Shown here piece by piece: positions 15,012-17,500 of a DNA stretch of 64,000 bases; position 1 is the first letter of the stretch, and each line of letters begins with the position of its first letter. Position numbers and translations under genes: made by a program. The stretch comes from Pedobacter hiemivivus (GTDB taxonomy: Bacteria; Bacteroidota; Bacteroidia; Sphingobacteriales; Sphingobacteriaceae), in the NCBI GenBank assembly GCA_040393085.1, contig JBEBUV010000018.1:7933-71932 (forward strand). Reading direction: 5' to 3'. The notes under the pieces are model-generated. The model made no database searches. It saw nothing but the letters and a program-made list of their open reading frames with translations, and had not been told where the DNA came from.

Positions 15012-16118
15012 TTATTTATAGACCTTAATCATAAATACATAATCCTTTATTTTGTCTACCTGCTTAGGCTTGCTTAAGCCTTGTAATGAATTCCTTTTGC
15101 TGAAAGCAATCTTTTTACCTAAAGAGTCATTAGGAATAGAATTTAATGCTTCCTGAATATATTTAGATTTAACAGCAAATGTAGCTCCATCAACCTGGTT
15201 CTGTTTAGCACTGATTACCCCTATAATGTTTCCATCATGATCTAATAAAGGGCCACCACTATTACCTGGATTAACAGGTATAGACACTTGATATTGAGTA
15301 GTATCTCCATTATAACCGGTTTTCGAACTTACATAACCTTGTCCATATACGGCGTCATCTTTAGGAAAACCAAGTGTATACACTAACTCTCCCATACCTA
15401 TAATATTTTGTTTCAACCGATATGGCAAGTTTGACAAAGCACTAAAGGAATCATCAGTAATCTTAAGGATTGCCAGATCATACTGAGCATCTCTACGTTT
15501 TACTACTGCTTTATATGAATTTCCTTTACTATCCTGAACATAAACAGAATCAGCACCATCTACTACATGTAAATTGGTTAAAATATAACCGTTTGCAGTA
15601 AGGGCAAAACCTGTTCCTCCAAAGTTTGCGGGTTTTAATTCTTTAGTAATATTGGCAGAATTGGCCTTATTTGTAGAATTGATTTTTCTAATCAGATTAC
15701 TTTGAGACGTTTTAATTTTTGCAAGCTCTCTACTTACTAATTCTACACTTCCACTTTGTTGAGTAGTTTGTTGTATAGAATATAAAGTAACAACTGTAAG
15801 TAATATAAATGAAGCGGCTACAGCTATAGCTGCTTTATTTTTACGCCAAATATTAATGATGAATGATGGATGAGGAGCAAATTCTTTACTTAAGGTAGCA
15901 ACATCAATTTGTGCATGTGCCTGATCCATTTTATTTTTCAAATCAGAAATCGAGGCATAATCTTTTAATGAGTCCAGAAAAACTTTATGAGTTACCACTT
16001 TATGATCAACCGTAGCATCATTTAAGCGTAACTCTTCAAAAGCTTTTAATTCTGCCTCATTTAGTTTACCATTCAGATAATCTTCAATTATCCCCTCTAA
16101 TTCTATCTCGTTCCTCAT
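15012..16118 (-). CDS. Membrane-anchored S1C/trypsin-like serine protease with an N-terminal anti-sigma-like domain
   Basis: N-terminal IEDYLNGKL..E...FE helix, one TM helix (AAIAVAASFILLTVVTLY), catalytic triad TNLHVV / YDLAIL / GNSGGPL, no PDZ; starts 7 nt after the ECF sigma stop. Confidence 0.88.
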   Translation of the reverse strand: MRNEIELEGIIEDYLNGKLNEAELKAFEELRLNDATVDHKVVTHKVFLDSLKDYASISDLKNKMDQAHAQIDVATLSKEFAPHPSFIINIWRKNKAAIAVAASFILLTVVTLYSIQQTTQQSGSVELVSRELAKIKTSQSNLIRKINSTNKANSANITKELKPANFGGTGFALTANGYILTNLHVVDGADSVYVQDSKGNSYKAVVKRRDAQYDLAILKITDDSFSALSNLPYRLKQNIIGMGELVYTLGFPKDDAVYGQGYVSSKTGYNGDTTQYQVSIPVNPGNSGGPLLDHDGNIIGVISAKQNQVDGATFAVKSKYIQEALNSIPNDSLGKKIAFSKRNSLQGLSKPKQVDKIKDYVFMIKVYK

Positions 16119-16125
16119 GTCAATA

Positions 16126-16692
16126 TTAAGATTGAAAAAATAACTTTTTTAACCTCTGAAGGCATTTATACTTCTGTGTTTTGGCATTATCAGTATTGGT
16201 ATAGCCAAACTTTTCACAGATTTCCTGCATTGAAAGGTTATTCATGTAAAAATCCTGAATAATAGTTTTACAAGGTTCTCCAAGATGGATTAATGCCGAT
16301 TGCATTTTTTCAAACTGCTGATCCTTTTCCTCATGCTCTTCCACATCAGTTTCTACAGCAATTACATCCTCAAAATCTGAAAGATCATTTGATTTTTTGC
16401 TTTGTTGCGAAAGCTTTTTCAACCAAATTCTTCTGCAAACTGAGTAGATATATGTTTTTAGTTTACTGCTTAACTCGAAATTGCCACCTTTAATCTTATT
16501 GTATAAAACAATGATTCCTTCCTGATACACGTCTTTTGCATCATCTTCATCACCATTATTATTCAAAATAAACTGCAAAATCATCGGAAAATACCCGCTA
16601 TACAGTTTATTCAGCGCTTCTTCTGAGTTATTTAAGATACCTAAAACAACCTCTCTATCTGTTGGAACTGAACTGCTTAACTTATTACTCAC
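16126..16692 (-). CDS. ECF sigma-70 factor
   Basis: Region 2 (DAKDVYQE..IVLY, KTYIYSVCRRIW) and region 4 (LGEPCKTII..FY...SMQEI....GY...NAKTQKYKCLQRLK); GTG start. Confidence 0.92.
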   Translation of the reverse strand: MSNKLSSSVPTDREVVLGILNNSEEALNKLYSGYFPMILQFILNNNGDEDDAKDVYQEGIIVLYNKIKGGNFELSSKLKTYIYSVCRRIWLKKLSQQSKKSNDLSDFEDVIAVETDVEEHEEKDQQFEKMQSALIHLGEPCKTIIQDFYMNNLSMQEICEKFGYTNTDNAKTQKYKCLQRLKKLFFQS

Positions 16693-16695
16693 TAA

Positions 16696-16725
16696 TTAAT
16701 ACCTTTATACGTAAATGGTAACCCA
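16696..16725 (-). promoter_or_regulatory. Putative ECF promoter, copy 1 (TGGGTTAC-N13-AGGTATTAA), abutting the sigma start codon
   Basis: Minus strand TGGGTTAC CATTTACGTATAA AGGTATTAA; identical boxes and spacing in copies 2 and 3. Confidence 0.75.
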
Positions 16726-16764
16726 ATGTTAAGTAAAATAATTATTTATTCTTGCTATTATCTC

Positions 16765-16794
16765 TTAATACCTGAATCCATCATCAGTAACCCA
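16765..16794 (-). promoter_or_regulatory. Putative ECF promoter, copy 2, upstream of the sigma gene
   Basis: Minus strand TGGGTTAC TGATGATGGATTC AGGTATTAA. Confidence 0.75.
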
Positions 16795-17056
16795 TAATGT
16801 ACATTCTTTTTATTACTGTAACTGTTTCCGCTAGGACTCATTGATTAAGTCCTTGGTAGATCCATCCTAAGTCAATGTTTTAGCAATAAACCATGACTTA
16901 CCATGTAATAACCCTGCTTTATATATTGATATATATAGAACTCGATATTGAGGCTGATTAAATTAAATCAAAATTTAAACTATCATTAAACCAGCAGGAT
17001 TACACTTTTTAAAACAAAAAAAACAAATAAACATGAGGATAGTAAAGAAATGATGA

Positions 17057-17064
17057 TATATTTG
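17057..17064 (+). promoter_or_regulatory. Primary-sigma -7 element (TATATTTG) upstream of the small lipoprotein
   Basis: Exact TAnnTTTG followed by CGG, about 170 nt upstream of the ATG at 17235. Confidence 0.5.
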
Positions 17065-17167
17065 CGGCTCTGAATTAGGGCCTGAAAAGCTTATCAGACT
17101 GTAAAACAGTACAATAACAGATGAAACAAGTACTATTAAAAATAATTTTACTTTTTTTTCAAACAAC

Positions 17168-17197
17168 TGGGTTACCTTTTAAACTTTCAGGTATTAA
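17168..17197 (+). promoter_or_regulatory. Putative ECF promoter, copy 3, upstream of the small lipoprotein
   Basis: Plus strand TGGGTTAC CTTTTAAACTTTC AGGTATTAA, 37 nt before the ATG at 17235. Confidence 0.75.
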
Positions 17198-17234
17198 TCA
17201 GTAAAATTAATTAATTATTTAAAATAGAATTAGA

Positions 17235-17444
17235 ATGAAAAACGCATTTAAATTTGGCTTTTTAGCTTTAGCAATTTCTTTATCAGTAGCAGCTTGTCAA
17301 TCATCAGAAAAAACTGGCGAATCTACAGATACTACGTTAACTGATACTTCAGCTATCGTTACTACAGTAGACACTAACGTAACTGATTCATTAGTTAAAG
17401 ATACAGCAGTTACTACTACAACTACTGAAGTTCCAGCTAACTAA
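17235..17444 (+). CDS. Small Thr/Asp-rich lipoprotein (69 aa)
   Basis: Signal peptide with lipobox (SVAAC, Cys21); codon choice looks like that of highly expressed genes; own terminator. Confidence 0.9.
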   Translation: MKNAFKFGFLALAISLSVAACQSSEKTGESTDTTLTDTSAIVTTVDTNVTDSLVKDTAVTTTTTEVPAN

Positions 17445-17464
17445 GCTAAATAAGTACAACTTAT

Positions 17465-17500
17465 AAAAAAAGGTTTTGGGAATCCCAAAGCCTTTTTTTA
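17465..17500 (+). terminator. Rho-independent terminator of the small lipoprotein gene
   Basis: AAAAAAAGGTTTTGGG-AAT-CCCAAAGCCTTTTTTT hairpin plus U tract. Confidence 0.85.

Follow-up and report, generated by a model that had tools for sequence, protein, structure and literature searches.

In textbooks, bacteria signal across their membrane by the regulated proteolysis of anti-sigma factors. To our knowledge, in the cases studied the brake on the sigma factor (RseA, MucA, or RsiW) and the first protease to cut it (DegS, AlgW, or PrsW) are separate proteins. We analyzed a locus of Pedobacter hiemivivus in which both functions are probably carried by one polypeptide. The locus lies on contig C18 of a 4.67-Mb draft assembly, within a stretch of 64,000 nucleotides that was analyzed whole and is called the window below. 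It consists of a sigma factor gene of the extracytoplasmic function (ECF) type; a gene beginning 7 nt past the sigma stop codon, whose product joins an anti-sigma-type head to an HtrA-type protease (the fusion protein); and, on the other strand, a gene for a small lipoprotein precursor.

Functionally, the closest described system is sigmaE-RseA-DegS-RseP of Escherichia coli or, in Pseudomonas aeruginosa, AlgU-MucA-AlgW. Like these, the Pedobacter module appears to combine an autoregulated ECF sigma factor cotranscribed with a single-pass anti-sigma factor of N-in topology, an inner-membrane-anchored HtrA protease that faces the periplasm and superposes on DegS-deltaPDZ and AlgW, and an M50 site-2 protease. 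The genome encodes such an RseP-type M50 protease; the two parts of its gene stand at the ends of different contigs (C203:2750-3097 and C80:6-962), which is an assembly break and not a broken gene. In contrast to the sigmaE system, the module fuses an RseA-like head and a DegS-like protease in one polypeptide, and it has no RseB or RseC genes and no PDZ domain, hence no known sensor of outer membrane protein peptides. Its regulon would comprise three promoters, as against about 100 genes.

The principle is not wholly unprecedented: some anti-sigma factors contain a protease fold of their own or undergo autoproteolysis. In DdvS-DdvA of Myxococcus xanthus, the transmembrane anti-sigma factor carries a periplasmic protease-fold domain, and its authors proposed autoproteolysis in trans before RseP acts (PMC11506125). 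DdvA, however, has a TPR-CHAT (caspase-like) domain whose active site is incomplete, its CHCC head binds zinc, and it controls a CBASS/CRISPR defense island (PMC11506125), whereas the Pedobacter module has an intact HtrA-type serine protease, a zinc-less head, and a small lipoprotein as its apparent target. Extracytoplasmic autoproteolysis of RsgI in Clostridium thermocellum is needed for transmembrane signaling and is followed by RseP (PMC10328401); it differs in that it depends on a conserved periplasmic autoproteolytic fold that is not trypsin-like, and it serves SigI-type sigma factors and polysaccharide sensing in Firmicutes (PMC10328401). A further likeness is offered by Porphyromonas gingivalis SigH (PG1827, ECF114), a Bacteroidota ECF sigma factor encoded beside a small lipoprotein gene (PG1828). 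ECF114 is without a canonical regulator (PMC7826278). The PG1828 match of our lipoprotein is below the cut-off, and in a sample of 401 Bacteroidota genomes, full-length matches to the fusion protein did not extend beyond three families (f2, f13, and the family of the window); SigH is thus a lead and not a relationship.

In public records, the fusion protein goes by no other names than "S1C family serine protease" and "serine protease Do". The searchable literature yielded no account of a fusion between an anti-sigma factor and HtrA; the supplement of the ECF reclassification, a possible place for such a group, was outside the search. An earlier note on this DNA, made from its letters alone, had not recognized the circuit as a characterized one, which agrees with the literature searched but overlooks the precedents for the principle in DdvA and RsgI. 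The module is real and widespread, and is a variant of ECF signaling by regulated proteolysis that is undescribed in the literature searched.

The bipartite motif and its conservation

The sequence TGGGTTAC-N13-AGGTATTAA was present in three exact copies in the window, two facing the sigma gene (P1 and P2) and one facing the lipoprotein gene (Plip; Table 1). No further site was found in the 64 kb, even at two mismatches. The shuffle expectation was 0.01 matches, and three copies were reached in 0/100 shuffles. Exact copies in the whole draft genome were those three alone, while relaxed scans added only intragenic sites or single matches, at about chance level. The earlier note had placed the three copies and the three open reading frames (ORFs) of the sigma factor, the 368-aa protein, and the 69-aa lipoprotein correctly, and had rightly reported no other copy in the 64 kb, which for exact copies extends to the genome. 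Two details changed: the gap between the sigma and lipoprotein genes counts 542 bp rather than 541 bp, and the 17 box bases with 13-nt spacing, identical in the three copies of the window, shrink across genera to a core of 7 + 7 bases.

This core, GGGTTAC-N15(16)-GTATTAA, was derived from 38 orthologous loci of P. metabolipauper, Mucilaginibacter, Chitinophagaceae, Chitinophagales, Hymenobacter, unclassified Bacteroidota, and 29 further Sphingobacteriaceae genomes; the additional bases of the earlier note (a leading T, and AG before GTATTAA) are conserved at species level. In 38/38 loci, a copy of the core faced the sigma gene and its position did not vary; the spacer measured 15 nt in 36 loci and 16 nt in the other 2. 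Copies facing a lipoprotein gene numbered 40, spread over 33 of the 38 loci at one to three per locus. Downstream of 36 of these 40, an ATG at 28-48 nt opened a small ORF with a lipobox (56-77 aa where complete); no such ORF was found for the remaining four in the sequence examined. Among the five loci lacking a counted copy, two were cut short, one had a variant -10 element, and two (L014 and L103), both with full upstream sequence, had no copy. Throughout, the motif was asymmetric and faced the downstream gene, at constant distances from the start codons.

The motif also followed the fusion gene across genomes. Among 121 Sphingobacteriaceae genomes, it was detected in 91 of the 93 that carry the fusion gene and in 2 of the 28 that do not (Fisher p = 7e-22), and both of the latter had a single match with a 16-nt spacer. 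Whole-genome scans of 12 genomes gave 2-4 matches at the locus and 0-3 elsewhere, compared with 0-2 for a reversed control pattern. In one genome (G115), a distance of 2.58 Mb separates the lipoprotein gene (L124 354-572; G115:C1:2969653-2969871) from the sigma operon; the gene keeps GGGTTACCTTTTT-N-GGTATTA about 40 nt before its ATG, promoter and gene having moved as a unit.

A bipartite -35/-10 arrangement, a fixed spacer, an orientation toward the sigma factor's own gene, and conservation among orthologues are the marks of an autoregulated ECF promoter, and all were found here. Because of the conservation at the locus and the co-occurrence with the fusion gene, we read the motif as the promoter of this sigma factor, which is very likely on the comparative data. 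The earlier note had made the same proposal and had suggested a scan of this genome and its relatives; among the 38 orthologous loci scanned here, no sigma gene was without the motif. Its view of the lipoprotein as a direct target gains from the 36 motif-preceded lipobox ORFs and from the relocated gene. There is strong comparative evidence that the sigma factor is autoregulated and that, outside its own operon, it has no conserved targets but the lipoprotein genes. Since the motif occurs only three times in the genome, the regulon would consist of the sigma factor, its partner, and the lipoprotein, and is very probably closed.

Candidates for additional members did not change this picture. 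A relaxed site on C68 was rejected for lying inside the ORF of a 312-aa membrane protein, and one on C107 for having no gene downstream. The site at C112:311-339 (+), AGGTTAC-N15-GTATTAA, is one base off the core, intergenic, and directly after a terminator hairpin; 25 nt past it, from position 365, begins a gene for a 287-aa DUF4349 lipoprotein. It was not counted as a target, being a single one-off match of which one or two were estimated by chance, and is possibly a weak extra one.

Equivalents of P2 were seen in only six loci, all of Pedobacter (the window, L007, L095, L096, L098, and L099). P2 looks like a local duplication; transcripts from it would carry an additional leader type, about 65 nt long. 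In the spacer between P2 and Plip, neither a conserved ORF nor an Rfam family was found, and its sequence resembled nothing in relatives or elsewhere in the genome; a 63-aa ORF at 16975-17166 was rejected as a gene because it is not conserved. Five other Pedobacter genomes (L095-L099) have one more lipoprotein paralogue in this interval, placed after the sigma gene and ahead of the next lipoprotein gene; its promoter is GGGTTACC-N-GCATTAA, whose -10 variant is overlooked by strict scans. Because the interval of the window is unrelated non-coding DNA, the paralogue seems to have been lost there. A scan of the region for sigma-70-type promoters gave shuffle-level scores only and was uninformative.

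Table 1. Features of the sigma-fusion-lipoprotein locus (positions in the window).
Feature	Positions	Strand	Details
Fusion protein gene (anti-sigma-type head + protease)	15012-16118	-	368 aa
C-terminal tail, residues 331-368	15015-15128	-	helix 350-360 + strand 361-367 (YVFMIKVYK)
HtrA/DegS-type S1C protease domain, residues 166-330	15129-15623	-	triad H184-D214-S287
Periplasmic juxtamembrane linker, residues 116-165	15624-15773	-	Q/S/T/N/K-rich; candidate cleavage region
Transmembrane helix, residues 97-115	15774-15830	-	Kyte-Doolittle; AlphaFold2 helix 95-117
N-terminal domain (head), residues 1-93	15840-16118	-	helices 2-15, 21-33, 35-70, 73-79, 86-93
ECF (group 4) sigma-70 gene	16126-16692	-	188 aa, GTG start
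P1, sigma-proximal promoter (predicted)	16696-16725	-	(T)GGGTTAC-N15-GTATTAA; ends 3 nt before GTG
P2, second sigma-facing copy	16765-16794	-	69 nt upstream of P1
Non-coding spacer between P2 and Plip	16795-17167		373 bp
Plip, lipoprotein-facing promoter (predicted)	17168-17197	+	GGGTTACCTTTT-N-GTATTAA; 37 nt before ATG
Lipoprotein precursor gene	17235-17444	+	69 aa
Intrinsic terminator	17472-17499	+	9-bp stem, AAT loop, T7; read from sequence, flagged by scan

The sigma factor and its fused partner

The sigma factor belongs to the ECF superfamily: it matched TIGR02937 with 85.8 bits (cut-off 42.9) over residues 25-183, spanning model positions 1-163 of 165, and Pfam Sigma70_r2 with 30.1 bits (cut-off 24). 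It is not a member of the FecI-like subfamily of Bacteroidetes (TIGR02985, 51 bits against a cut-off of 126), and it reached no NCBIfam subfamily or equivalog model, all equivalog scores being far under the cut-off; it is therefore not an RpoE equivalog. No relative was found in the PDB at E <= 0.001.

The GTG at 16692 is the sole canonical in-frame start before sigma region 2, the next being Met36 in the first sigma2 helix. At most loci, P1 ends 3 nt ahead of a GTG (sometimes TTG) aligned to sigma residue 1, and in many genera the divergent promoters stand back to back within about 70 bp. This leaves no room for another promoter, so that P1 transcripts would be leaderless or nearly so. Against the leaderless reading stands the rule of Todor et al., by which the transcription start site (TSS) lies 9-10 nt past the flipped -10 base (PMC7776599); with the A of GTA as the flipped base, transcription would begin at the third GTG base, which is also the best conserved of the start codon (G in 73% and a purine in 91% of loci). 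In one genus (L106, L109, L111, and L113), there is no start codon at this place, but there is a GTG 9 nt further on. We put the odds that P1 yields a leaderless, GUG-initiated sigma mRNA at about even.

Codons 7-10 of the sigma gene (16654-16674, minus strand) read AGTTCAGTTCCA (Ser-Ser-Val-Pro) and were nearly invariant in nucleotides, third positions included, across genera whose proteins are just 60-70% identical. This could point to an element acting at the RNA or DNA level, for example an initial transcribed region or a signal for translation of leaderless mRNA.

A sigma orthologue (identity 38-89%) was encoded immediately 5' of the fusion gene in 38/38 loci, and no other conserved regulator gene was found at the locus. 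The fusion gene was present as a single copy in 93 of the 121 Sphingobacteriaceae genomes, representing 25 of 37 genera, and the head was joined to the protease in every orthologue seen. The module is conserved in Sphingobacteriales and Chitinophagales and is present in at least one Hymenobacter genome, that is, in three orders of Bacteroidota. Pedobacter heparinus DSM 2366 is among the species with an orthologue (P0111).

In the fusion protein, the best 19-residue Kyte-Doolittle window scored 2.27, and the flanks of the helix contained three K/R residues on the N-terminal side, which reads WRKNK, and one on the C-terminal side. This predicts a cytoplasmic N-terminus and a protease facing outward. 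The AlphaFold model of the whole protein had a predicted local distance difference test (pLDDT) score of 77 and placed the protease domain at residues 165-326. Between helix and protease, the linker was the least conserved part of the protein and varied in length; pLDDT was below 50 at residues 113-160, and a helix was predicted at 125-153.

The only significant Pfam families were Trypsin_2 (residues 168-301, 4e-24, 86.4 bits, cut-off 27.6) and Trypsin (8e-12, likewise from residue 168). The His-Asp-Ser triad typical of HtrA/S1C proteases (H184, D214, and S287 in GNSGGP) was invariant in 45 orthologues. The top PDB matches of the protease in Foldseek were MucD, Helicobacter pylori HtrA, DegP, DegS-deltaPDZ, HtrA1, and AlgW, with E of about 1e-12 and a target-normalized TM-score of up to 0.72. 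No PDZ domain was matched by Pfam in the fusion protein, and the 38 residues after the protease are too short for one. Scores for the DegP/DegQ/DegS models remained under the cut-off (TIGR02037, 97 bits against 416; TIGR02038 for DegS, 64 against 423). The C-terminal tail, which occupies the place of the PDZ domain of HtrA proteins, was conserved and confidently modeled (residues 350-367) and had no Pfam match. In other Bacteroidota (G162, G286, and family f31), proteins of 455-615 aa share residues 166-366 of the query and differ in their N-termini. The PDZ-less protease with its tail therefore appears to be a reused module.

The head was conserved as strongly as the protease domain and modeled with a pLDDT of 83-88 (83 for the isolated domain). 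Its pattern IE-x-YL-x-G-x-L-x3-E-x3-FE (IEDYLNGKLxxxExxxFE) aligns with the first helices of zinc-binding anti-sigma (ZAS) domains, the zinc ligands being replaced: residues 1-93 contain no Cys, and the stretch corresponding to HxxxCxxC is FEELRLNDATVDHKV. This excludes a ZAS domain proper but not the fold of an anti-sigma domain (ASD), because zinc-less ASDs such as that of RseA are known. Among 28 orthologues, zf-HC2 weakly matched 9 (best E 0.0014), and every other family matched at most 2. A profile of the head, run against 1.8 billion representative proteins, retrieved 198 clusters at E <= 1e-10. At 1e-13 to 1e-15, it reached membrane proteins with tandem N-terminal modules (e.g., P0243, E = 4.5e-13), to which Pfam assigns zf-HC2 (7.8e-22), RseA_N, and RskA_N; other matches combined an ASD-like head, a transmembrane helix, and TPR repeats. 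Sigma adjacency in 38/38 loci and the predicted cytoplasmic location are those of a class I anti-sigma factor.

These data favor a zinc-less, class-I-type anti-sigma domain, which we consider likely, and we infer that it binds the sigma factor. They support the earlier note in placing anti-sigma factor and protease on one polypeptide, as do the N-in topology, the HtrA fold, and the transitive links to zf-HC2, RseA_N, and RskA_N. Its description of one transmembrane helix, an outward trypsin/S1C domain with intact triad, and no PDZ likewise agrees with Pfam, the alignment, and the topology prediction. As a separate observation, five metagenomic proteins (P0243, P0265, P0212, P0223, and P0241) carry two to four tandem anti-sigma-like modules (xxYLxGELxxxExxxFE...) before a transmembrane helix, often followed by TPR repeats, an architecture we do not recognize.

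The lipoprotein and its expression

The lipoprotein precursor has a lipobox (LSVAAC, MKNAFKFGFLALAISLSVAA-C21) typical of bacterial lipoprotein signals, and lipidation at Cys21 is predicted. The mature protein would comprise 48 aa rich in Thr, Ser, Asp, and Val, with sequons of the form D-[ST]-[AILVMT], the O-glycosylation site of Bacteroidota. All 36 motif-associated ORFs had the lipobox Cys at position 18-22. These orthologues and paralogues share an unusually conserved signal peptide, MKNxFKFGFLALAISLSVAAC, followed by a tail of 2-7 sequons and little else; no conserved C-terminal motif of the DegS-activating kind was found among them. The NCBIfam model PG1828_fam_lipo (NF050142) matched the window's lipoprotein over its full length at 39.7-41.9 bits, below the cut-off of 50. 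The model gave seven sub-threshold matches in the same genome (six in other ORFs) and matches in 7/14 unrelated control genomes, and a relationship with PG1828/SigH was rejected on these grounds.

Expression was examined in assembled Logan contigs of RNA-labeled runs, which lack read ends. In runs X26, X27, and X36, the only contig on the 2.7-kb stretch covered the lipoprotein gene. The X26 contig was 100% identical and extended over 17217-17464, from 20 nt past the Plip motif to just before the terminator, consistent with an abundant monocistronic transcript from Plip. As no other part of the stretch was represented, the lipoprotein mRNA is probably among the most abundant of the organism. 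An X28 contig of a relative crossed P1 and stopped short of P2, which is compatible with use of P2 but ambiguous. A loose end at 17035 in an X31 contig resembled a template-switch oligo and was rejected as a TSS; it was treated as an artifact because the genome there resembles the 3' end of the oligo.

Proposed release of the sigma factor and alternative explanations

The best full explanation is a self-contained, autoregulated ECF module, to which we give a probability of about two in three. At rest, the head would hold the sigma factor sequestered at the membrane. An envelope signal would switch on the HtrA domain, probably oligomeric like other HtrA proteases, and this domain would cut the poorly conserved juxtamembrane linker of a neighboring protomer, a built-in site-1 cleavage comparable with that of DegS on RseA. 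The M50 site-2 protease and cytoplasmic proteases would clear the remainder. The free sigma factor would then transcribe its own operon and the lipoprotein gene, with positive feedback through the sigma factor and negative feedback through newly made anti-sigma factor. Of the possible site-1 enzymes, the fused HtrA domain is the likeliest. Cleavage of itself or in trans by the built-in protease as the release step is a tentative part of this explanation, for which we would not claim even odds.

Several observations weigh against this explanation. The PDZ-less HtrA domain is without an obvious sensor, and the protease could equally be an output. The N-terminus of the window's own protein had no significant Pfam match. 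PDB profile searches with the head gave chance-level helical matches only (Mycobacterium tuberculosis RslA, E = 0.9), and Foldseek with the isolated head model returned no anti-sigma structure, AlgU-MucA appearing only at E = 8.9. An hhalign comparison of the head with three sigma-adjacent ZAS proteins of relatives fell in the expected register at 2% probability, with a thin template. The spacing between -35 and -10 is 2-3 nt shorter than in textbook ECF promoters. In addition, the X31 contig of a relative reached about 130 nt upstream of Plip, which may represent read-through, DNA, or an artifact.

The main rival to built-in release is that the protease is itself an output, a tethered quality-control protease or chaperone of the DegP/MucD kind induced together with the lipoprotein, while the anti-sigma factor is inactivated by other proteases or by a conformational signal. 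Envelope-stress regulons classically include HtrA genes, degP being under both sigmaE and Cpx. The closest structures include the quality-control proteins MucD, DegP, and HtrA besides DegS; the fusion gene is itself in the predicted regulon, and no PDZ or other recognizable sensor domain is present. If the two activities were independent, however, the retention of the head-protease fusion in every orthologue, in single copy in 93/121 genomes, would be hard to explain, and a tethered protease beside its own flexible linker is suited to cleavage in trans. We regard the output explanation as somewhat unlikely. Another possibility is that the head is not an anti-sigma domain, the protein being simply a membrane-anchored protease cotranscribed with and regulated by the sigma factor, which would be controlled otherwise; one such way, suggested for certain ECF groups of Bacteroidota, is control through transcription alone. 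The non-significant sequence and fold tests of the window's N-terminus would fit, as would the finding that only 6% of Bacteroidetes ECF sigma factors have a recognizable class I anti-sigma neighbor (PMC7406223). Yet a domain of about 93 residues that is as conserved as the catalytic domain, is always encoded beside the sigma gene, matches zf-HC2 in 9/28 orthologues, and is strongly linked in transitive searches to zf-HC2, RseA_N, and RskA_N makes this improbable.

A homeostatic loop centered on the lipoprotein would be compatible with either built-in release or a protease output. Here, the HtrA domain would sample the sequon-rich disordered tail as ligand or substrate, and a tail that is unglycosylated, mislocalized, or scarce would alter protease activity and hence release of the sigma factor, so that the module would monitor lipoprotein supply or O-glycosylation. 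The regulon appears closed around the lipoprotein, whose gene is found beside the sigma-fusion pair at most of the 38 loci, where two or three copies with separate promoters are frequent; apart from its 2-7 sequons, the mature protein contains little, and the transcript appears abundant in metatranscriptomes. This evidence is one of association, however, O-glycosylation is putative, a DegS-activating type of C-terminal motif was not conserved, and no lipoprotein-facing motif was found in L014 or L103; we hold the loop to be unlikely. Its strictest version, a closed self-surveillance loop in which an unglycosylated or mislocalized tail causes the anti-sigma linker to be cut in trans and the sigma factor to be set free, is less probable still, and we treat it as a long shot. 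If it were true, one polypeptide would serve as sensor, site-1 protease, and anti-sigma factor and would report on the biogenesis of envelope glycoproteins or lipoproteins in Bacteroidota. Finally, the motif could be an operator for another DNA-binding regulator, given that its proximal copy overlaps the usual position of a leader and start codon. Its asymmetry, its orientation toward the downstream gene at fixed distances from start codons, its two boxes with fixed spacer as in ECF promoters, its co-occurrence with the sigma-fusion pair, and the lack of another conserved regulator at the locus render this very improbable.

A module with built-in release would fuse the brake and the first scissors in a natural, widespread form, found in single copy in about three quarters of the sampled Sphingobacteriaceae. 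With only two or three promoters in its regulon and a single tiny output protein, it would be a minimal and genetically tractable system for studying how an HtrA protease lacking PDZ is activated and what links site-1 cleavage to release of a sigma factor. Sites for this sigma factor are essentially absent from the rest of the genome, which makes the promoter-sigma pair a candidate for an orthogonal expression switch in Bacteroidota as well. The module may further give a function-linked handle on uncharacterized small, sequon-rich lipoproteins that are apparently highly expressed in environmental Bacteroidota, and on the ECF sigma factors of this phylum, most of which are without recognizable anti-sigma partners (PMC7406223).

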